This document shows positions 4,173 through 29,697 of a stretch of 30,878 bases of DNA, piece after piece (position 1 is the first letter of the stretch; each line of letters starts with the position of its first letter). The stretch lies in the UHGV virus genome UHGV-1533542. One strand, written 5' to 3'. The notes under the pieces were generated by a model. It saw nothing but the letters and a program-made list of their open reading frames with translations, ran no database searches and had not been told where the DNA came from. The position numbers were made by a program, and so were the translations under genes. This DNA comes from a virus.

Positions 4173-6929
4173 TTAGCTACTTTCAAGCATTGCAAGACGT
4201 GATTCTATTTTTTCGATTCTTCTACGCAAATAAGCTGACTCAAGCCATAAACACTGGTCAGTACGGATACCCCACCTATTTCCAGCCTTGCAAACCAGAG
4301 TTCGCTCTTCTGTTTCGTATTCTTCTTCCATCTCAATTTCGACGCCATCCACAACTTTAGTGATCATCCTTACCGCCATCACTGGCGCGTATTTATCATC
4401 CCATTCATCGTAACAGAGAAGGCCAAATCTGGTTCCATCAATCCCATGCGCGAGGAAAGTGTCTCTCACTTGTTGTGCTATAACACCAAAATGCCAGCGG
4501 GCACCATCTCCCTTTTCCCTGACGGCATCAAGCCAGCGAAAAGCTACAATCCTGATATCTCCCCATGCATCCAGAATTGCATCACCTTCATAACCACGAG
4601 ACATATACAAGCTGAGCTCACTTGTACTAATCGGTTCACTTTTTTCTCTACCATCTGATGTGTTTATCGAACCGTTCGCAGAATAAACCTGTGCCCATCT
4701 AAATGATGGTGCACCAAGAGATTTGCTGTTATCAATAATTGGTGAAAAATTACCTTTAATGGCAATATTTCCAGAGTCGCCGAGTATATTAATAACTGCA
4801 GAGTCATCACCATGGTTTTTTACGCTTAAGTTTCTTGATGAAATATTTATATCTTTGTTATATCCACTAACATTAATCCATCTTTTACCATCAATGTGAT
4901 ACCCGTAAATATTTCCGTCTGATTGTTCGTCAGGTGACTCTCTAAGAACAATAGCATCTGCTCCAGACGACCATTGTATTTTTGTATCTGTAGGCCTCCA
5001 GTTCTTTATAATGAACGAACCATCAGTAAACTCCGTTTTTATTTGTCTATTGTCTACAAATGCGTCTCTTGGTTTAAACTCACTTGTGTTAACGCTGCTC
5101 TGAAGATCAGAAGCAAAAAATCTAAGATTTCCTGTATAACCCTGAGTCTCGGTCTTGTTATACGCAATCATAATTCCATTTTCAAACTCAGATGATGTTA
5201 TTTTAACATCACGGCAATCACCAAAAATGCAATTTCCTTTATCAAATGTTGTTTGAGCTTTGAATTTATCAAACCTTAAATTACGAACAGGGAAACCATC
5301 AACCTCTAATGCAAAGGATGCAGGAAGGCCAAAGTATTCTGATGGCTTACCTGATGTATGATCAAGAGTAGTGGCTACTGTATTCTCAAAAACAGTCCCG
5401 CTAAAATTATTACCAATTGACGGAAACCTGATTACACTTATTGTACCTTGTATTTCAGGAGAAATACCAGATAGTGTGATGTTAGCTCCATCAAATGATG
5501 CATCTGAATACGTATATACTGATTCACTGCCAGCAATTTTAAACTGTTTAACTGAAGTTATTCTCATCGACTTTTTATGTTTAAATGTCACTGAGCTTTC
5601 AGTATTACTTACAAGATCAATCTGAGGGCTATTCCTTATCGCGATCCCTGACTGGACATAAACGTTATTAAAGTGCGTTTTTTCAGGATTTCCCTTCATT
5701 GAAAGGCTCCCGTCATTTTCTGTCAGTAGTAGTCCTTTTACCCTCCAATAGCCGACAATCTGTACGTTATCAATAACTGAATCACAGCTATCGTATACAT
5801 GCAACCCTATATCCCAGTTATCACCCAATGAATAAGAATCAGGGTTATTGTATCCTTCAATACCATTTTTACTTACCATTATTCTCAGATTGCGTAACTG
5901 TGATGCCCTGTTGATACTAACAGCTACGCTCATGGCTTTTGGTGTAGCAGGAGTAACACCTACAGAATCTTCATTTGTAAACTCAGTGAACTTACAAGAT
6001 ATCCCTTCAACAATTTTAACTGGTCTTTCATTAGAGATGTTAAAAAAATATTTGTTTTTTTCTCCATCACCAGTAAATACAAGATGGGTTCCTTTACTCC
6101 AACTTTTTAATAATCTTTCAGGCGCTGGTCTATATGTATCCCAGTAATCAATTCCATCACCAATTAATGAAACTCCAGGAGGCACATCTATATTCTTAGA
6201 AATCATCCATTTACCTGCAGGTATTCTAACGACACTTGCACCAGAATTTATCGCATTAATTAACCATTCAGACGCATCAACTTCAAAATTTAATGCAGCA
6301 TATCTTTGCTCAAACGGAACAAAATCAAGAGCGTTAACGTTATCCCGCATCTTATCCTGGAACGTTCGGTATACTGCTCCAGAACCATACTGAATAAACC
6401 AACCAAAACCACCAATAACTCCGGCGATTGCAGCATCGACATAATTACGCATTGAGCGATTATTTACAGCGTCCTGCTCAAGTGATGGATCAGCAAGGTT
6501 AGATATTCTGTTTTGCTTTGCATCGTAATATTTTGCAAGCAAAGATGGTTTCATCAATGCACGTCTGAACCACCCAAAACATTGCTGGATCAGCATCGTC
6601 AGGTAGTCAAAAGCATCTTCATGCACTTCGGGGAAAAATTTACCCTGATTGCGAAGGTCTGTCTCCTGCACTACATCAAGCACACGATCTATCGTAATTC
6701 GCCATCCAGCAGCAAGCGGAGACGGAAGAACAACAGAACCGCCACTATAAGTGCCCGCCCCAGTTACCGTATAACCGGTATCCAGAACCAATTCTGTTAC
6801 GTTCCCGTTCAGGTCAGACACCTGAACAACCAGGTCGGATTTTTTGAAAATACGGAAGGTATACGGAAATGATGTCGTAGCGCCGTTACCAGTGTATTCG
6901 TTGTGGTCAACTTCGGTTGAGACCGTCAT
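4173..6929 (-). CDS. tailspike / tail fibre with depolymerase-type body and C-terminal intramolecular chaperone (peptidase S74-like) domain
   Basis: 918-aa ORF with SD GGAGA 6 nt before ATG; C-terminal ~160 aa match, from memory, the endosialidase auto-chaperone domain (S-D-G-R-E-K cleavage motif, DAWGD, HFGVIAQQVRD, C-terminal RRRIEKIESRLAMLE); central Asn/Ser/Gly-rich repeats consistent with a beta-helix. Confidence 0.88.
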   Translation of the reverse strand: MTVSTEVDHNEYTGNGATTSFPYTFRIFKKSDLVVQVSDLNGNVTELVLDTGYTVTGAGTYSGGSVVLPSPLAAGWRITIDRVLDVVQETDLRNQGKFFPEVHEDAFDYLTMLIQQCFGWFRRALMKPSLLAKYYDAKQNRISNLADPSLEQDAVNNRSMRNYVDAAIAGVIGGFGWFIQYGSGAVYRTFQDKMRDNVNALDFVPFEQRYAALNFEVDASEWLINAINSGASVVRIPAGKWMISKNIDVPPGVSLIGDGIDYWDTYRPAPERLLKSWSKGTHLVFTGDGEKNKYFFNISNERPVKIVEGISCKFTEFTNEDSVGVTPATPKAMSVAVSINRASQLRNLRIMVSKNGIEGYNNPDSYSLGDNWDIGLHVYDSCDSVIDNVQIVGYWRVKGLLLTENDGSLSMKGNPEKTHFNNVYVQSGIAIRNSPQIDLVSNTESSVTFKHKKSMRITSVKQFKIAGSESVYTYSDASFDGANITLSGISPEIQGTISVIRFPSIGNNFSGTVFENTVATTLDHTSGKPSEYFGLPASFALEVDGFPVRNLRFDKFKAQTTFDKGNCIFGDCRDVKITSSEFENGIMIAYNKTETQGYTGNLRFFASDLQSSVNTSEFKPRDAFVDNRQIKTEFTDGSFIIKNWRPTDTKIQWSSGADAIVLRESPDEQSDGNIYGYHIDGKRWINVSGYNKDINISSRNLSVKNHGDDSAVINILGDSGNIAIKGNFSPIIDNSKSLGAPSFRWAQVYSANGSINTSDGREKSEPISTSELSLYMSRGYEGDAILDAWGDIRIVAFRWLDAVREKGDGARWHFGVIAQQVRDTFLAHGIDGTRFGLLCYDEWDDKYAPVMAVRMITKVVDGVEIEMEEEYETEERTLVCKAGNRWGIRTDQCLWLESAYLRRRIEKIESRLAMLESS

Positions 6930-8153: not shown

Positions 8154-8168
8154 TTACCTTAAAGGTAA
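8154..8168. promoter_or_regulatory. ATTACC-N5-GGTAAT dyad, copy b (perfect; TTACC-TTAAA-GGTAA)
   Basis: Perfect inverted repeat about 20 bp upstream of the RBS of minus-strand gene 7405-8133, in the divergent region shared with the Bro-N gene; weaker related site CTTGCTTTCAGGTGA at 8172-8186. Confidence 0.55.
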
Positions 8169-8261: not shown

Positions 8262-8527
8262 ATTTACATCGCACTCCTCTTGTGCCATAGTAATCGGGCA
8301 CTGGATTTTGCCAGTGCCGGGATTGGCGTCCCGGGTTACTACAGAGGCACATATGCCGCATAAGCGGTTTTTTTATGTGTAAAGCGCACCTATTCTATGG
8401 TGGGCTGTGTGGGGGCACCGAAAGGTGCGCCGGGTCCTTTGTAGCCGGTTACGCCAACCCTGCACAGTTCACCACCAACCGATTGGCGTCGGTAGTGGTG
8501 ATTAACCTAACTACAAAGGTGATCACT

Positions 8528-9214
8528 ATGACTGCTAACGTAACCCCATCTGTTTTTCATTTTGAATCAGAGGCAACCATTCGAGCCATTGTTATTGATG
8601 GAAATCCTTGGTTTGTTGCCAAAGACGTTATTAAAGCTCTTCAACTGACAAACCCCACTATGTCAATAAAATCTCTTGATGATGATGAAAGGGCTAAATT
8701 TAACTTAGGCCGTCAAGGCGAAACCAATATTATCAACGAGTCAGGCCTCTACACACTGATCCTCCGCTGCCGCGATGCGGTGACACCAGGCACTATCCCC
8801 TACCGCTTTCGTAAATGGGTTACAGGTGAGGTTCTTCCTCAGATCCGCCGCACCGGAAGTTACATTAAAAACTCGCTCCCGCAGGAAGAACGCATAAAGA
8901 TGGTTGCCGACCAGGTAGCCAACGCCACGGCGTCAGCAGTAATGCAGGCGATGAAGATAGAGAACAAAACCTACAGTGCCCCGCTGAAGCCCGGCTACCG
9001 CAGCCTGATTCACTCGCCGTCTGGTGTTCTCGGCCTGACGGAGAACTCACTGCTGATGAATCTGCTGAACCAGTTACAGGAAGACGGGCACGACGTATCG
9101 GGCGCGGCGGCAGAGCTGACCACCATGTTCTGCTACATCGTCGGTGTGAGCAAATGCCTGCGTGATATCCAGACGCACGCGGAGTACATCAACGACAAAG
9201 CAGGATTCTTCTGA
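8528..9214 (+). CDS. Bro-N domain protein (phage antirepressor-like) with C-terminal domain paralogous to the 85-aa protein
   Basis: ATG 8528 with SD AAGGTG chosen over the RBS-less ATG 8375; N-terminal Bro-N signature (FHFESEATIRAIVIDGNPWFVAKDVIKALQL); hairpin with weak T-tract after stop. Confidence 0.85.
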   Translation: MTANVTPSVFHFESEATIRAIVIDGNPWFVAKDVIKALQLTNPTMSIKSLDDDERAKFNLGRQGETNIINESGLYTLILRCRDAVTPGTIPYRFRKWVTGEVLPQIRRTGSYIKNSLPQEERIKMVADQVANATASAVMQAMKIENKTYSAPLKPGYRSLIHSPSGVLGLTENSLLMNLLNQLQEDGHDVSGAAAELTTMFCYIVGVSKCLRDIQTHAEYINDKAGFF

Positions 9215-24109: not shown

Positions 24110-24406
24110 TCACTCCTGTTCACTGGCCTCTTTGGCCATCTTCAAATACTGTTCAGGGCAATGCGCCATAACGCGCTGAAACAGTTCCAGCGCCAGATTG
24201 CGTTGCCCCTCATTAAATGCCATTGCCATAGCATCCATCGGAGAGATAGCGGAAAACACCCGGCCTTTCTCCAGCACCGACCAGACAACGCGACGCCCCT
24301 GTTCACTGCTCATGACAAAGCGAATGTCATCAATTTCACGCTGTGCCATGTCACGTTGCTTACGGGCGTTTTCTTCTTTCAGTTGATCGTCTTCGTAATC
24401 TGTCAT
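24110..24406 (-). CDS. small acidic protein between portal and scaffold genes (98 aa)
   Basis: ORF start overlaps portal stop; function unknown. Confidence 0.55.
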   Translation of the reverse strand: MTDYEDDQLKEENARKQRDMAQREIDDIRFVMSSEQGRRVVWSVLEKGRVFSAISPMDAMAMAFNEGQRNLALELFQRVMAHCPEQYLKMAKEASEQE

Positions 24407-26082
24407 TGTGATTGCCCACCCTGACCACTAACTGCATTCGCCATAGCTGACAACACACTCGGATCCGAAGTTTTAGCTTCGCTTAGCGTCTTGGCCCCCT
24501 GTGCCGCCGCCATCCCCATCGCCATCATTTGTTGCTGCTGTTGTTGCTGTGCCCGTTGCTGGCGAGCCTGCTCAACCTGTTCCTGCGGAACAATGACGGT
24601 TGGAGACACTCCGGACATATCAGCGAATGCATCGATCGCCTGATCAACGTTGAGTTTGTCGAGAGCTTCTGGTTTCGCTTGCGCAAGTTGACCAATGAAG
24701 TTAACCGTGGACGCCAGACTGGACAGGCCGATAGACTTCTGCGCCTGAGCCATGACGGAAATGTATTCGACCTTCAGGGGCATGCCTTCCATCGCGTCAG
24801 GCGGTGGCGGCAGCATGTTTTTGCGCACCATCATCGAGAAAGCGCGGTCAATGAGAGGATTAAGACATTCGTCGTTCAGACGCTCCAGAACCGGCCCCAA
24901 CATCAGAAGTTTTTCTTCTTTCATTTCGATCACCGCTTCAACAGGCATCGAGCGGGTATTGATGTTCTGCAACATCATGAACAGATCGACAAAGTAGGCG
25001 CTGTTAATGATTTGACGAGTGTCCTGAATGTCTGCCACCAAATCTGCTGTACTGGGGTTAACCAGATAAGCAGGCCTGAAGCCATCCTGACCAGTAATCT
25101 GATCGATATACGTGATGTCGCCAGGAAGAAGGGAGGCGCGCTGATTCTTGAGGGAAGTCGGAGCAACCATCGGCGGATTGGTGGCTTTATCAATCAACTG
25201 CGACTTGCGCTTCTGGAGAAGCTGCAATGCCTTAACAGGTCCAAGCGCCAGCATACCCGGGCATGATGATCCATAAACATCTTCGCCGTTAACTTCCCAG
25301 CGCGGAGCCATAATTGGAAACTCATCGAATCCGGACTCACGCAACAACTTGTCGTTATCTCCACCAACCTCGTAATAAACCGATTTGAATGGCTTGTTCT
25401 TGCTATCCAGCTTCGATGTATCGCGGTCAATGTTCGGGTAAACCGAATGCATCACTTCGATCCACTTCTCGTAGGTGCCGCTTTCCCACATGCTTTTTAC
25501 GGATTCGCTGACGTTATTTAGCCCGAACTCCTGAACAAGCTGACGAACAGTCATAGAGAACTTGCGAAAACAGGTGTCAACACTGCCACGAGGTGAGTTA
25601 GCCAGGTAGTAACTGCCTATCGGGAATGGCATTGTGCGAATGATGTCCTCGTCATCCTCCAGCACTGCCATTGCACCAGTGCTGTATGTGCCGAGGCTTC
25701 CGTATAACTGCGGAAGAGACTGGTAGAGATTCGACTTATTGAACATATCGTTCATGCGGTTCTGAACTGCCTCAAGCCACAACTTAACAGGGCCATAATC
25801 CATCATTTCAGGATCTGGCGTAGCCAGGCGAAACCACGGACGCGCGGGGCTTGTGATGCCTGACATCATGCCGCTGGCGAGAGTGCGCGCCGCCATAGTC
25901 CCGGTCGAATCAATAATGCGTGTATTGCGCCGATCGTTACGGTTGGCCTCAGAAGTCAGAAAGCGGGAACCACGCGGGTTGATGTAATCACTCAACTCGC
26001 GCCAGTGCGGCTCGAACGACTGACGCTCGCTTTCAAGTTGTGCGAACTGTTTGTTCAATCGCTCTTTAGTTGTTTCCGCCAT
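24403..26082 (-). CDS. portal (head-to-tail connector) protein, T7 gp8-like
   Basis: 559 aa; Gln/Ala/Met-rich C-terminal tail (QQRAQQQQQQQMMAMGMAAAQGAK) like the T7 gp8 C-terminus as I recall it; located between terminase and scaffold. Confidence 0.88.
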   Translation of the reverse strand: MAETTKERLNKQFAQLESERQSFEPHWRELSDYINPRGSRFLTSEANRNDRRNTRIIDSTGTMAARTLASGMMSGITSPARPWFRLATPDPEMMDYGPVKLWLEAVQNRMNDMFNKSNLYQSLPQLYGSLGTYSTGAMAVLEDDEDIIRTMPFPIGSYYLANSPRGSVDTCFRKFSMTVRQLVQEFGLNNVSESVKSMWESGTYEKWIEVMHSVYPNIDRDTSKLDSKNKPFKSVYYEVGGDNDKLLRESGFDEFPIMAPRWEVNGEDVYGSSCPGMLALGPVKALQLLQKRKSQLIDKATNPPMVAPTSLKNQRASLLPGDITYIDQITGQDGFRPAYLVNPSTADLVADIQDTRQIINSAYFVDLFMMLQNINTRSMPVEAVIEMKEEKLLMLGPVLERLNDECLNPLIDRAFSMMVRKNMLPPPPDAMEGMPLKVEYISVMAQAQKSIGLSSLASTVNFIGQLAQAKPEALDKLNVDQAIDAFADMSGVSPTVIVPQEQVEQARQQRAQQQQQQQMMAMGMAAAQGAKTLSEAKTSDPSVLSAMANAVSGQGGQSQ

Positions 26083-26096
26083 TTCAATGACTCCGG

Positions 26097-26303
26097 TTAC
26101 TGACCAAGCAGCGTTTTACCGCTGGTATTAGCGGTTGATGTGTCGCCCTGAGAACCGGTAAGCAGCGTAGAACTACGACCAGCAGCAGCGCGACGGCGAC
26201 GTGTTTCTTCGTCGCGGGCATCAACAACGGCAGCATCCTGCTCCTGTGGTGCTGCCTGAACTTCTGGTGTTGCAGGCACTGATGGTGAGCTACCCATGCA
26301 CAT
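26097..26303 (-). CDS. small Ala/Pro-rich protein upstream of portal (68 aa)
   Basis: ATG 26303 with SD GGAG 9 nt upstream; stop 14 nt before portal ATG; may be the first gene of the head operon. Confidence 0.4.
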   Translation of the reverse strand: MCMGSSPSVPATPEVQAAPQEQDAAVVDARDEETRRRRAAAGRSSTLLTGSQGDTSTANTSGKTLLGQ

Positions 26304-26393
26304 ATCAATGACTCCGTACGCAATTAAATTATTACCAATTTAACCACATATGATTTATTTATCGTAGATAGTTGACATTTAACGCGCGAATTA

Positions 26394-26408
26394 TTACCTT
26401 TCAGGTAA
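26394..26408. promoter_or_regulatory. ATTACC-N5-GGTAAT dyad, copy c (TTACC-TTTCA-GGTAA)
   Basis: Perfect TTACC-N5-GGTAA 17 bp downstream of a TTGACA hexamer (26372-26377), between the divergent head operon and the plus-strand tRNA unit. Confidence 0.5.
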
Positions 26409-26730
26409 CTAAAGAGTTCATTCCGGTTACTAACCTGACTGGCTTGTCGTTAAATTGAACAGGTGGAGTGAGCTTTTATTTTGAGCAGTACGGCGTATGG
26501 CACATGCGACGATAGCGGTCTGGATACGTTTAAGGGGCACCCTCCCTTGCTCGGGCAAACGAACCAGGTAGCCGGAATGTGCAAGTCGAGCGGTTTTATT
26601 CCGCGCACGGGGATTCACCATCCCGGCGATTCGGTGTGACGCCTCGGAAGAGACGAGGGTACAACGATGAGAGCATTTATGGAGCCGCGACAAAGTGTGG
26701 TGCCTTAACAGGCTAAGTGCTCTCAGCGTT
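26409..26730 (+). other. ~320-nt noncoding, GC-rich region between operator copy c and the tRNA (possible tRNA-precursor leader or sRNA)
   Basis: No ORF longer than about 25 codons with an RBS on the plus strand; several local hairpins; minus-strand ORF 26430-26693 is R/H/C-rich and judged spurious. Confidence 0.2.
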
Positions 26731-26807
26731 GTGGCATTAGCTCAGTTGGACAGAGCAACCGCCTTCTAAGCGGTTGGTCGCAGGTTCGAATCCTGCATGC
26801 CACGCCA
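26731..26807 (+). tRNA. tRNA-Arg (anticodon UCU), phage-encoded
   Basis: Cloverleaf read by eye: acceptor GTGGCAT/ATGCCAC, D-arm GCTC..GAGC, anticodon stem ACCGC/GCGGT with loop CTTCTAA (anticodon TCT), T-arm GCAGG-TTCGAAT-CCTGC, encoded CCA; body close to but distinct from E. coli argU as I recall it. Confidence 0.88.
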
Positions 26808-26970
26808 GAATCACGCCTAAGGACCGTGATGCCAGAAGTTCCAGGGGCTTGGCGGTGATGGTTTCCCTTGAAGGACTATCACCGCCCTTTTTACAGCAGG
26901 ACGCCATTGCGATGACTTCATGCTGTAAACCAGTACAGCCACGGAAGGCATAACTCATTGCTTCCAGTTC

Positions 26971-26994
26971 GCCCGGTTCGCCGGGCATTTTTTT
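26971..26994 (+). terminator. intrinsic terminator downstream of tRNA, abutting the RBS of the 27006 gene
   Basis: GCCCGG-TTCG-CCGGGC followed by ATTTTTTT, which runs into SD AAGGTG; a second weaker hairpin GGCGGTGAT...ATCACCGCC + CTTTTT at about 26851-26890. Confidence 0.6.
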
Positions 26995-27005
26995 AAGGTG
27001 AGATT

Positions 27006-27428
27006 ATGAAGACAATTGATATGTTGGCTAAGTATCTAAATGAATGGCCATTAAAATATTCTCGTATCGTTCAGGCTGAAGACTGCGTTTTTTATGGCGT
27101 TTTTGCTGGTAATGAAATGCATTACGAAGTAATTCAGAGTGAGGGACTGACCGGGTTAACTCTTAGCGAAGACCATGGTACTAGCGTTACGTTCCATGAC
27201 TGGATAACAGCACAACGTTCTGAAATGGAAAAAGGCGATGTGTTTGATATTTCTCGCTCTGTATACGCCAAAGAAAAAAGTGATGATGATTACATGCGCG
27301 AAAACTTATACAACATGAAGTTACAATGCCTGGCTGAAGTGCTTAGTAAAAGATCTTTACTTGATGTGGTTGGTGCTGAGCAGGACGCCAAGGCAATCAA
27401 CGCCGCATTCGATAAAATAACCTTCTAA
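27006..27428 (+). CDS. 140-aa acidic cytoplasmic protein, unknown function (moron between terminase and portal)
   Basis: ATG with SD AAGGTG; no TM or signal peptide; about 24 Asp/Glu vs 15 Lys/Arg; opposite strand to flanking virion genes; followed by palindrome and terminator. Confidence 0.7.
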   Translation: MKTIDMLAKYLNEWPLKYSRIVQAEDCVFYGVFAGNEMHYEVIQSEGLTGLTLSEDHGTSVTFHDWITAQRSEMEKGDVFDISRSVYAKEKSDDDYMRENLYNMKLQCLAEVLSKRSLLDVVGAEQDAKAINAAFDKITF

Positions 27429-27432
27429 CGCA

Positions 27433-27444
27433 GTGACATGTCAC
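27433..27444. repeat. perfect 12-bp palindrome GTGACATGTCAC, copy ii
   Basis: Exact copy 5 bp after the stop at 27428 and 5 bp before terminator hairpin 27449-27476. Confidence 0.8.
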
Positions 27445-27448
27445 AAAC

Positions 27449-27476
27449 AGCCAGCCGATGAGCTGGCTTTGTTTTA
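27449..27476. terminator. intrinsic terminator (bidirectional candidate) between the 140-aa gene and terL
   Basis: Stem AGCCAGC/GCTGGCT with 6-nt loop followed by TTTGTTTTA on the plus strand; A-rich on the other side. Confidence 0.65.
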
Positions 27477-27518: not shown

Positions 27519-28994
27519 TTAAGCATAGGGATCGTAATCTGTGATGGCCTTGCCTTGCTGGTTCTGCTGACCGGGAATTCGCAGACGCTTCGACACAGGG
27601 AACGCAAACGTCAGCAGTAGCGCATCGCCTTTACCAGGAGAACGCCCAAGCCGCTCCTTGATATCTTCCTTCTGTTCGATAATGATTTTACCGTCCACGC
27701 GAACTTTGTACTCTGCCGCCGACAGGTCGTCCGCTGTTTCCTGGTCATCCAGCATGCCGCCCAGCCTCAGCCATGTCTTGCATGAATTGAACATCTCCCC
27801 ACGCTTGTTGAGCATCTGCGGGTCAGTAGACGCGCCACCGAACGGAACAAGTTGCCATGTACGACCCCATCCGTCACCGATTGACTTCAAACCGGTTCCG
27901 TAACCGAAGTCGATGAACACCGCGTCAGCCTGATACTGGTCTTCAAAGTCAGCGATACGCTTTGCCATAATCAGATCGTCAGTGGTCTTGTTGCCAGTCC
28001 ACAGCACCTTACTGTGCAGCCCCTGCCGCAGGTATATCACAGCGTCATCAACGCCTGAGTATGCCGGGTCAACGCCGATTATCACCGGAGCATGTGCAAC
28101 CTGCGCAGCGGTGACCACCCGTTTCATTGCCTCGTCAGTAAGTCCGGTAGGGATAAACTGCAATTCAGATGCATCCGGGAATATGCCGCGCACACGGATT
28201 TTAACGAAGTCGCTGTCTTCCCCGTAGTCATCAACCCATTTCTGCAACTGCTGTTTGTTGGTGCCTTCCACCGTCCGGCTGTCAATCTGCGCAGTTTTCC
28301 AGCGGTGTTTATATTTGCGGAAACATTCGCGGAAACGTCCGGTATTACGCGTCGGGTTTCCGAACGCCACCCAGATAATCTCAGTGTCTTCGTCCGTTAG
28401 CGCACCCTCGGCAACTTCCCACACCAGATCCGCAATGTTCGACGCTTCATCGAATACCACGATGATGCGTTTGCGCTCGTTGTGTAGTCCGGCGAATGCC
28501 TCAGTGTTGTGCTCAGACCAGGGTATTGCGTCAGCTCGCCACCGCTTGTCGTGTCCAGGATCATTGCTGTACATCGCGGTAGCGGTACAGGTAAACCAGT
28601 CTTTCGTGATAGCAAGGTTCGACCACTTGATAATTTCCGGCCAGGTCTTCGTTCGTAGCTGGTTGTCGGTGTTGGCGGTCACCACAACCTTACAATCCTC
28701 GCAAGTGGACATGCCCCAGTTGATCAGCATTGAGATGAATGCGGATTTACCAATACCGTGACCCGAAGCGCGTGCCAGCATAAGCGGCTGATAGCGCGTC
28801 TCTGGATTCTGCAGGTGATCACGTATCTCTCGGAACGCATCAGCCTGCCACTGACGTGGACCGGTGGCATGTGCCAGTTCAGTCCCATCTTCCCCCCACG
28901 GGAACGCATAGAGGGCATAGCCAAGCGGATCGTGAGTGAACCCTGCAATATCCTCGATTAACTGCTCTTCAGGAGATAACGCTGTATCTGTCAC
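27519..28994 (-). CDS. terminase large subunit
   Basis: 491 aa; Walker A-like SGHGIGKS in N-terminal ATPase part, acidic nuclease-type C-terminal part; GTG start overlaps terS stop; directly upstream of portal module. Confidence 0.92.
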   Translation of the reverse strand: MTDTALSPEEQLIEDIAGFTHDPLGYALYAFPWGEDGTELAHATGPRQWQADAFREIRDHLQNPETRYQPLMLARASGHGIGKSAFISMLINWGMSTCEDCKVVVTANTDNQLRTKTWPEIIKWSNLAITKDWFTCTATAMYSNDPGHDKRWRADAIPWSEHNTEAFAGLHNERKRIIVVFDEASNIADLVWEVAEGALTDEDTEIIWVAFGNPTRNTGRFRECFRKYKHRWKTAQIDSRTVEGTNKQQLQKWVDDYGEDSDFVKIRVRGIFPDASELQFIPTGLTDEAMKRVVTAAQVAHAPVIIGVDPAYSGVDDAVIYLRQGLHSKVLWTGNKTTDDLIMAKRIADFEDQYQADAVFIDFGYGTGLKSIGDGWGRTWQLVPFGGASTDPQMLNKRGEMFNSCKTWLRLGGMLDDQETADDLSAAEYKVRVDGKIIIEQKEDIKERLGRSPGKGDALLLTFAFPVSKRLRIPGQQNQQGKAITDYDPYA

Positions 28995-29587
28995 TGATTA
29001 CCATCCTGACGTTCTTTGAGTCGCTTCCTGGCTGCTGCTATGCGATCAGCAATTGTCACATTCACATTAACATCCAGACGTTCTTTGAATGCGTTGACAT
29101 CAACATGCTTACCAATCAGCTCAAGGTTCTTCACCTTGTCAGGCCATTTAATTTTTTTGAGGATTGTCTCTATTGAATCCTCGTTCATGTTCATGATGGT
29201 CGATGACAGATCAAAGCCACTAAGCGTAGTGCGCCAGATTTTCGGCCACTCACGGATTGGTTTAAGGCTCCCATCGTCGTTGAGGATGTCGATCACGTCC
29301 ATCTGGTCGATCTCCACCAGGCGCATGAGAACGTAATCAGCACTGACACGCATTCGTTTGTTGCGCTCCTCCATCAACTCGGCAATCCGTTTCTGAATGC
29401 GTTCATCGCGCATCATGACACTGGCTTTAACTGCCGCTGTATTTGGGGAGAATCCTGCGTTAATCGCAGCCTGAGTCTGGTTTTCAGGCGTTTTGATGTA
29501 TGACTGGCAATAAGCCTCCTGCATTGCTGTGAGCGGCTTAAATTGCGTTGATTTGCGTTTATAGGTTTTAGGTTCAGCAGGCATCAT
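28991..29587 (-). CDS. terminase small subunit
   Basis: Start set at ATG 29587 (MMPAEPK...) because the TTG-opened extension to 29665 contains an intrinsic terminator; HTH-type segment TAMQEAYCQSYIKTPENQTQAAINAGFS typical of small terminases (memory). Confidence 0.8.
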   Translation of the reverse strand: MMPAEPKTYKRKSTQFKPLTAMQEAYCQSYIKTPENQTQAAINAGFSPNTAAVKASVMMRDERIQKRIAELMEERNKRMRVSADYVLMRLVEIDQMDVIDILNDDGSLKPIREWPKIWRTTLSGFDLSSTIMNMNEDSIETILKKIKWPDKVKNLELIGKHVDVNAFKERLDVNVNVTIADRIAAARKRLKERQDGNQ

Positions 29588-29630
29588 AACCACCGTGGTA
29601 ATTGTTACCGTTGTGGTAATAGTACCATGC

Positions 29631-29656
29631 AAAATAAAGCCGCCATAGTTGGCGGC
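29631..29656 (-). terminator. intrinsic terminator immediately upstream of terS
   Basis: GCCGCC-ATAGTT-GGCGGC hairpin followed on the minus strand by TTTATTTT; lies between the nin-like genes and the terS ATG. Confidence 0.6.
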
Positions 29657-29697
29657 AGTATTCAAAATCCATCAAATTCATCATGCATAATCTACTC

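Follow-up and report, generated by a model that had tools for sequence, protein, structure and literature searches.

A repressor-controlled early unit between packaging and portal genes

The 30,878-nucleotide (nt) virus genome UHGV-1533542, the whole of which is referred to here as the window, is an epsilon15/phiV10-like (Uetakevirus) prophage whose top DNA matches are the phages HEMP4, PAS61 and phiV10. At positions 26372-27476 a plus-strand unit breaks the continuity of the minus-strand terS-terL and portal genes, as described in an earlier note made from the sequence of this DNA, and the features which that note listed (promoter with operator, GC-rich stretch without genes, tRNA, hairpins and open reading frame (ORF)) were all recovered in place. 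The unit is a repressor-controlled early transcription unit of the prophage, in which an operator-overlapped promoter is followed by a structured RNA of about 245 nt, a tRNA-Arg(UCU) and a pair of intrinsic terminators, and then by an exchangeable cargo gene with a third terminator behind it (Table 1). It is the structured leader RNA, its relatives in other phages and its possible function that concern us here.

The promoter was noted earlier for its TTGACA hexamer and operator copy; both are present, and the operator palindrome contains the -10 element, placing the probable start of transcription near 26407. The -35 element and the palindrome are kept in five Uetakeviruses, the orthologous palindrome is labelled 'repressor; lysogeny' in the epsilon15 record, and the motif TTACC-N5-GGTAA occurs eight times in the window against 0.48 expected (0 of 100 shuffles reached eight), with copies at 8154, 8247 and 9288 in and around the immunity region. 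A strict promoter scan did not call the site at 26372, owing to its weak -10. As the operator overlaps the promoter, the unit should be silent in the lysogen and would fire early after induction, rather than being expressed by the lysogen as a moron, the name given to it earlier, would be. Like morons, it is an insert read against the direction of the late genes, has a promoter and a terminator to itself and carries a variable cargo gene, but the overlap of the palindrome with both the -10 and the start site argues against the expression from a repressed prophage by which morons are defined.

Table 1. Features of the early unit and its flanks (window coordinates unless another record is named).
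Feature	Position	Strand	Basis or remark
-35 element, TTGACA	26372-26377	+	sequence
-10 element, TACCTT (weak; 17-nt spacer after -35)	26395-26400	+	sequence
Repressor-operator palindrome ATTACCTTTCAGGTAAC, containing the -10	26393-26409	+	sequence
Second operator-like site TTAAATTATTACCAATTTAA	26323-26342	unassigned	direct repeat, 62-nt spacing
Hairpin-GUUGUGG module	~26410-26486; 2283-2555 of mEp390 (L012); 2453-2552 of epsilon15 (L005)		
Conserved core of the structured leader RNA	26487-26680	+	covariance model R1
H1 hairpin (9 base pairs)	26491-26511	+	covariation
P2, enclosing a variable hairpin	26515-26522 paired with 26565-26572	+	covariation
Near-invariant 19-nt block GGTAGCCGGAATGTGCAAG, then second variable hairpin	26567-26585	+	alignment
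P4	26610-26624	+	covariation
Pseudoknot, CACC with GGTG	26616-26619 with 26633-26636	+	covariation
P5, CCTCG-GAAGAGA-CGAGG	26642-26658	+	covariation
3' module, long helix ACAACGATGAGAGCA paired with TGCTCTCAGCGTTG(T)	26661-26731	+	compensatory variants; minimum free energy fold agrees
tRNA-Arg, anticodon UCU (reads AGA)	26731-26807	+	ARAGORN Arg(tct); Rfam 73.3 bits vs gathering score 29
T1, intrinsic terminator (hairpin 26851-26886, 14-base-pair stem, -22 kcal/mol, then CTTTTTAC)	26851-26895	+	
T2, intrinsic terminator (hairpin 26971-26986, GCCCGG-TTCG-CCGGGC plus T7, -11.2 kcal/mol, fused to ribosome binding site AAGGTGAG)	26971-27002	+	
ORF140, cargo gene, 140 amino acids	27006-27428	+	conserved family, PHROG 4846
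T3, terminator (hairpin 27449-27468, -11.5 kcal/mol)	27449-27476	+ (U-rich tail); - (weaker, interrupted T tract)	
terS	28991-29665	-	flank
terL	27519-28994	-	flank, convergent with the plus-strand unit
gp3-like gene	26097-26303	-	flank
Portal	24403-26082	-	flank

A structured RNA common to unrelated phages

The leader has a GC content of 57%, compared with 48% for the whole window, and the earlier impression of a GC-rich stretch of about 320 nt with no credible ORF held. Its structure was tested on a non-redundant alignment of 37 sequences (A3), in which conserved blocks are separated by hairpins of variable length, and which contains five helices: H1 (CGGCRUAUG-GCA-CAUGYGNCG), P2 closing a variable arm, P4, a pseudoknot of the P4-loop CACC with GGUG, and P5 with its GAAGAGA loop. 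Over the 28 pairs of these helices 97.2% of the alignment cells are standard-paired, as against 88.7% in column shuffles, and 11 pairs, amounting to 79 cells, are changed on both sides, a result which none of 500 shuffles equalled; slid controls were 28-52% paired. An independent mutual-information screen of 120 unique copies placed the same pairs on top, and these consist of standard pairs only (79 G-C and 38 A-U in H1, 94 C-G and 25 A-U in the pseudoknot). The leader, at 26487-26730 of the window, is thus a structured RNA, with helices that are backed by covariation and include a pseudoknot. The long 3' helix, too, shows compensatory variants among copies (GAGAGCA/UGCUCUC, GAGCGCA/UGCGCUC and GAGAGUA/UACUCUC), is capped in the window by an exchangeable cassette of 38 nt (26677-26716), and has as its last base pair one that includes nucleotide +1 of the tRNA. 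A calibrated covariance model of the family, R1, scores the window copy, which is the single one present, at 152.5 bits (E = 6.5e-45). Folding of the single sequence was uninformative (z = -1.05 on the plus and -1.96 on the minus strand).

The hairpins could also form in single-stranded DNA, and a minus-strand ORF is annotated over the RNA in several records (75 of the 156 loci), so that an element acting at the DNA level (a single-strand origin, recombination site or packaging signal, for instance), or else a gene for a small protein on one or other strand, has to be considered. We hold this to be very improbable. G.U pairs are abundant and sensible only for a plus-strand RNA, as they would be A.C on the other strand, and the orientation of the RNA is always that of the promoter upstream. 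A protein-coding reading is ruled out by the covarying helices together with the spacers between conserved blocks, which range over 47-72 nt and 19-32 nt, fall into every residue class modulo 3 and therefore break any reading frame. The coding sequences that have been deposited over the structured RNA at 2943-3311 of L003 (mEp460 gp37) and 2011-2253 of L012 (mEp390 gp36), and over the tRNA by phiV10p04 (3438-3689 of L001), are almost certainly spurious, as are the minus-strand ORFs.

RNAalifold prefers a long-range GCACAU/AUGUGC helix. The local H1 was chosen over it, as columns 9 and 21 covary perfectly (18 G-C, 18 A-U) and the long-range pairs are invariant. The two strands in question are an invariant GCACAU within H1 (26500-26505) and a complementary, invariant AUGUGC after P2 (26577-26582), and their pairing may represent an alternative conformer that excludes H1; as neither side varies, covariation does not inform on this point.

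The family core measures about 165-190 nt and the whole RNA about 165-250 nt. Window positions 26490-26737 are about 83% identical to sequences of the lambdoid phages cdtI, mEp460, 2H10, Ayreon, Stx2c and Stx2a, P1, P7, D6, SJ46 and RCS47 match the leader at about 80% over 165 nt, and phages of Klebsiella, Enterobacter, Salmonella and 'Stenotrophomonas' match it at 70-78%. The 19-mer GGTAGCCGGAATGTGCAAG alone recovers at least 119 IMG/VR contigs. Searching species-representative genomes with the 5'-hairpin pattern yielded 25 DNA stretches, 23 of them confirmed by the profile, and the confirmed copies are nearly all from Enterobacterales (Escherichia, Klebsiella, Citrobacter, Kosakonia, Phytobacter, Kluyvera, Enterobacter and Erwinia). 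Among 5426 complete E. coli genomes 1840, or about a third, have a match to the leader (1472 with at least 80% coverage), at up to four places per genome, and the NCBI annotation pipeline PGAP annotates nothing at these matches; the RNA is carried by Stx2 phages, the cdt phage and P1, among others. Rfam 15 gave no family match to the RNA, whether the region was scanned at E <= 1, six diverse homologous loci at E <= 0.1 or the whole window at the gathering score, and only tRNA, C4 and isrK were matched in these scans. Literature searches by topic and by conserved sequence strings retrieved no description of the RNA, though an earlier mention is still possible. The leader is therefore apparently an undescribed and very common structured RNA of early phage operons, and whichever function is assigned to it, its recognition corrects the annotation of thousands of genomes, several records of which carry spurious ORFs over it.

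This distribution bears upon the suggestion of the earlier note that the leader is only the 5' part of a tRNA precursor, or else a small RNA private to this unit. The RNA does abut tRNA-Arg(UCU) just downstream in 27 loci, and tRNA-Ile2 lies 13-14 nt upstream of it in 18 P1-type loci; nevertheless the link is optional, as no tRNA stands within 400 nt of 111 of the 156 copies, and the core is 70-84% identical across unrelated phage types and shows compensatory changes. The leader is an autonomous family, and the precursor or private RNA is already contradicted to the point that we give it next to no credence.

Beyond the core the RNA is modular, with three arrangements on its 3' side: the helix and cassette seen in the window, an unrelated structured module, or nothing at all, as in P1, where the ribosome binding site of ban comes next. 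In the window-type arrangement the strands ACAACGAUGAGAGCA and UGCUCUCAGCGUUGU pair to form a long helix, which covaries and carries a cassette of 35-70 nt on top. These cassettes are discrete units, reassorted among the core subtypes: the window cassette is shared with cdtI and one Klebsiella copy, and L036, with an identical core, has another. The tip cassettes of four copies (L133, L105, L015 and L041) contain sequence like a tRNA T-arm (GGTTCGATTCC or GGTTCAATTCC), in which ARAGORN calls no tRNA. A second type of module, a long hairpin with a GUUGUGG-like tail, is found both upstream and downstream of the core (Table 1). In mEp390 one copy of it follows a P5-like stem-GAAAGA-stem hairpin, one is called an RNase III site in the epsilon15 record, and such modules bring the untranslated leader of the early-left (pL) operon to as much as about 670 nt. 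Two core copies, both on the minus strand and about 630 nt apart, are present in one viral contig (L029, 4787-4960 and 3988-4155), and in BUCT708 (L010, 2131-2250, plus strand) an RprA-like Rfam match stands right after the RNA (50.2 bits against a gathering score of 70, which it thus fails to reach; E = 0.001).

Early promoters, terminators and a possible antitermination function

In four unrelated lambdoid immunity types (cdtI, mEp390, BUCT708 and Stx2a_WGPS2) the RNA is preceded, in order, by the cI stop, a terminator and a sigma-70 promoter with copies of the oR operator, and it begins 45-52 nt past the -10. The cdtI promoter, near-consensus TTGACA-16-CATAAT with 11 of 12 matches, bears an oR operator copy, and in the other three the operator repeats of the cI-cro intergenic region recur just 5' of the RNA. 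The RNA is here the leader of the pL operon yfdP-yfdQ-...-xis(-int), the position held by nutL in lambda and putL in HK022; a place on the cI transcript, like that of rex, is ruled out by the terminator and the operator-bearing promoter that lie between cI and the RNA. In P1 it is found between tRNA-Ile and ban, within the ban operon controlled by C1 operators. The lambdoid pL operon, the P1 ban operon and the Uetakevirus slot are thus all repressor-controlled early units. Over 70 non-redundant contexts, furthermore, promoter-like sites are enriched within 100 nt upstream of the core (17 in that bin, compared with 1-8 elsewhere) and usually end 45-52 nt before it.

What follows the RNA is equally consistent. 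With a terminator finder based on T runs and folding, which replaced a strict scan (loop of at most 8 nt) that missed terminators with large loops such as that of cdtI, at least one strong same-strand terminator was found within 700 nt downstream of the core in 61 of these 70 contexts and at least two in 32, typically at -16 to -24 kcal/mol. The density of terminators peaks at +200 to +400 and is there roughly 2-10 times that of bins more than 600 nt upstream; all 28 Uetakeviruses have at least one and 27 have at least two. The scan that placed T1, T2 and T3 on the plus strand of the window found four terminator-like hairpins against 1.8 expected, and T1, T2 and T3 each combine a GC-rich hairpin with a U tract. 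The terminator hairpins and the fusion of a Shine-Dalgarno sequence to the second T tract, which had been pointed out before, are real, the T2-ribosome binding site junction being constant in Uetakeviruses whatever gene lies behind it: the ORF140 family, Pfam Phage_gp49_66 (phiV10), DUF2829, an HNH endonuclease or a membrane protein. A consensus scan found no promoter between T1 and the ATG of ORF140. The arrangement had been described as attenuation-like; T1 and T2, however, lie about 170-310 nt from the core without overlapping it, and more generally terminators are located about 100-400 nt past the core, clear of it, and are followed by unrelated genes, which fits neither a riboswitch nor an attenuator and is more like processive antitermination.

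An early promoter leading into a conserved structured RNA, with strong terminators beyond and clear of it and the genes behind these, is the signature of processive antitermination, and we tentatively propose that the leader RNA is a cis-acting processive antiterminator, which would help RNA polymerase (RNAP) pass the terminators that follow. The tentativeness pertains to the mechanism; the anatomy of the RNA and its unit is much more secure. After derepression the nascent leader RNA would fold and act in cis on its own RNAP, alone or with host factors, and the polymerase would become terminator-resistant, as with the put RNA of HK022. RNase P cleaves at the 5' end of tRNAs, and a cut at this point of the window transcript would free an RNA of about 325 nt (from about 26407 to 26730); as the 3' helix ends at tRNA +1, the one cut would mature both RNAs. 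Severing the RNA in this way need not stop its action, given that put RNA works without a tether, and the tRNA could go on to decode the AGA codons of AGA-rich phage genes. The put RNA of HK022 binds the zinc-binding domain of the RNAP beta' subunit and acts over kilobases, the tether being dispensable (PMC9378689).

The RNA has several likenesses to the put RNAs. As with putL and putR of HK022 and the putL-like RNA of HK639, the leader RNA follows directly on an early promoter under repressor control and has terminators after it, a location it occupies in the four lambdoid immunity types as well as in the window; the lambdoid phages concerned are ones for which no N gene was found, and the RNA comes without a phage protein of its own. 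In HK639 one put-like RNA is annotated, at pL, just as the whole genome of cdtI contains a single leader copy. An N gene is neither annotated in cdtI and Stx2a_WGPS2 nor detected, there is no N-like or arginine-rich first gene downstream, and Pfam gave no match. In a study of related phages of the LLS group the N gene was likewise absent and put-like, RNA-mediated antitermination was speculated upon (PMC12315714). The RNA is thereby a candidate answer to the question of how early transcription passes terminators in these phages. It differs from the put RNAs in its length of about 165-250 nt and its five helices, one of them a pseudoknot, where put is two-stemmed, V-shaped and about 70 nt long (PMC9378689), and in occurring also in P1, Uetakeviruses and the Lastavirus SopranoGao; the put activity is established, and that of the leader RNA would be its analogue. 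Membership in the put family was rejected: neither nhmmer nor R1 gave a hit in the two phages, HK022 and HK639, and turning off the filters across the putL-like RNA annotated in HK639 did not change this. The leader RNA would therefore work like put without belonging to it. By eye, HK639 (L158, 34187-34312, minus strand) has ACGGCG...CAUGCGUCG and GGAAGAG in common with the leader family, with no nhmmer or covariance-model score; the resemblance may be due to chance or to very remote kinship.

Lambda nut with N, and the boxB-boxA-boxC elements of rrn operons, provide the other precedent. The pL leader position is that of nutL, the P5 loop GAAGAGA begins like the nutL boxB loop GAAGA, and some 3' strands read UGCUCUUU and then GUUGUGG, which resembles boxA and boxC of rrn. 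This boxA/boxC reading was abandoned, since the strand in question is paired and covarying, with UGCGCUC, UACUCUC and AGUCAUC variants, and its own sequence is not conserved. P1 copies, moreover, are without a boxA-like module, and no N-family gene was found downstream.

A number of observations weigh against an antitermination function. The RNA has no kinship in sequence or fold with the put RNAs of HK022 and HK639; cdtI has a single copy, and none near pR; and only one of three P1-type copies has a terminator nearby. In epsilon15 most of the RNA, the tRNA and T1 are missing, yet T2 and the cargo gene are kept. A terminator-resistant polymerase would also pass T3, running antisense into terL. 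Finally, in four copies (SopranoGao, L011; L038; L136; L140) the promoter ends 5-7 nt before the RNA, an arrangement that fits a stand-alone RNA gene equally well, and L038, L136 and L140 carry a downstream terminator as well. All that is left of the RNA in the epsilon15 record (L005, 2545-2600) is H1 with the beginning of P2, which a deletion has joined to the sequence that in the window comes after T1, and the RNA is therefore dispensable for that laboratory phage.

Promoters that end so close to the RNA fit the main rival reading, an early non-coding RNA acting in trans, which would be the first product after derepression, be ended by a terminator or by RNase P, and bind or sequester a host or defence factor or another RNA, with the downstream genes expressed through leaky termination. 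Such an RNA would also account for the strong terminator that follows in most contexts, for downstream genes that are unrelated among contexts, and for the need for RNase P to part RNA from tRNA in the window, and the near-invariant 19-nt block, the conserved loop and the shuffled tip cassettes would suit a molecule with a specific partner. If this were so, it would be an abundant phage RNA of the first wave with a host target. We nonetheless regard a trans-acting role as possible but doubtful, for the only operator-bearing promoter of the lambdoid early-left operon lies upstream of the RNA, so that transcription must continue past it, and in P1 the RNA is simply the 5' untranslated region of ban with no terminator after it.

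A cis-acting leader that spares RNAP itself, be it a shield against Rho loading, an element for RNase III/E processing or stability, or a switch that senses a ligand or protein, seems to us unlikely. The length of the untranslated leaders (about 325 nt in the window, 600 in cdtI and 670 in mEp390), the RNase III site predicted in an adjoining hairpin module of epsilon15, and the GCACAU/AUGUGC pairing that could replace H1 and so suggests two conformers, all speak for a role of this kind. A plain shield or stability element, though, needs no near-invariant 19-nt block, pseudoknot or conserved loop, and with the terminators clear of the core and the downstream genes without a common function, the expression platform of a classical riboswitch is absent.

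Should the antitermination model hold, one may go further and envisage a new class of RNA, unrelated to put, that reprograms E. coli RNAP for processive antitermination without a phage protein by means of a conserved pseudoknotted core and exchangeable hairpin cassettes, and that serves a large share of temperate enterobacterial phages, namely P1, the epsilon15/phiV10-like phages and those lambdoid phages, Stx2a and Stx2c phages among them, for which no N gene was found. This wider proposal is speculative and we would not lean on it heavily. An RNA-only antiterminator would add a second class to the one so far known from phages, would offer a compact new part for control of E. coli RNAP, and might give a lever on the early genes of Stx phages.

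The tRNA, the cargo gene and neighbouring operators

The tRNA-Arg was said earlier to be complete and to have an encoded CCA, and it passed both ARAGORN and covariance scoring as a member of Rfam RF00005, the CCA being at 26805-26807. In E. coli AGA makes up about 2 and AGG about 1 per 1000 codons; the corresponding values for the genes of the window are 7.4 and 4.1, and with AGA thus enriched the earlier idea of codon compensation, by which the tRNA would serve AGA-rich phage genes, is plausible. In its completeness, encoded CCA, place on an early transcript and AGA-enriched genes it is like other rare-codon phage tRNAs (the tRNA genes of P1, argN and argO of Stx phages), and differs in that the 3' helix of a structured RNA is physically joined to it. 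A tailspike-sized ORF of 918 amino acids on the minus strand (4173-6929) stands far above the rest of the prophage, with AGA as 21 and AGG as 10 of its 50 arginine codons, which suggests that it is of foreign origin and makes it a main client of the tRNA.

ORF140, the cargo gene of the window, belongs to a conserved protein family and has 103 homologues, all 'hypothetical', in which a C-terminal helical segment is conserved and the N-terminal part is variable. The idea that it is an acidic DNA mimic or anti-defence protein found no support: the protein is mildly acidic (isoelectric point 4.74, net charge about -9, with 24 acidic and 15 basic residues), where Ocr- or ArdA-like mimics have an extreme negative surface charge, and gave no Pfam match and no Protein Data Bank profile match, and its AlphaFold model is of low confidence (predicted local distance difference test 61.6), Foldseek returning no fold match at E <= 0.001. 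Behind ORF140, T3 faces the convergent terL, and phiV10 annotates the orthologous hairpin as a terminator of the terL strand.

On the other side of the promoter the second operator-like site, which shares a AATTATTACC core with 26389-26398 and is invariant in five Uetakeviruses, probably serves the divergent gp3/portal promoter. Two more operator-like palindromes, TAACCACCGTGGTAA and TTACCGTTGTGGTAA, occur at 29587-29619 (plus strand) at the 5' end of the terS ORF, and from these the packaging operon, too, may be repressor-controlled. Rfam matches to isrK (8298-8374, 56.7 bits) and C4 antisense RNA (8393-8479, 79.5 bits), both on the plus strand and above the gathering score, are located at the start of a Bro-N antirepressor-like ORF (8375-9214) and are flanked by the operator palindromes at 8154, 8247 and 9288. 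The region 8298-8479 looks like an RNA-controlled antirepressor module of the P1/P7 immI type, and the same isrK/C4 pair is present in cdtI (L002, 777-965).

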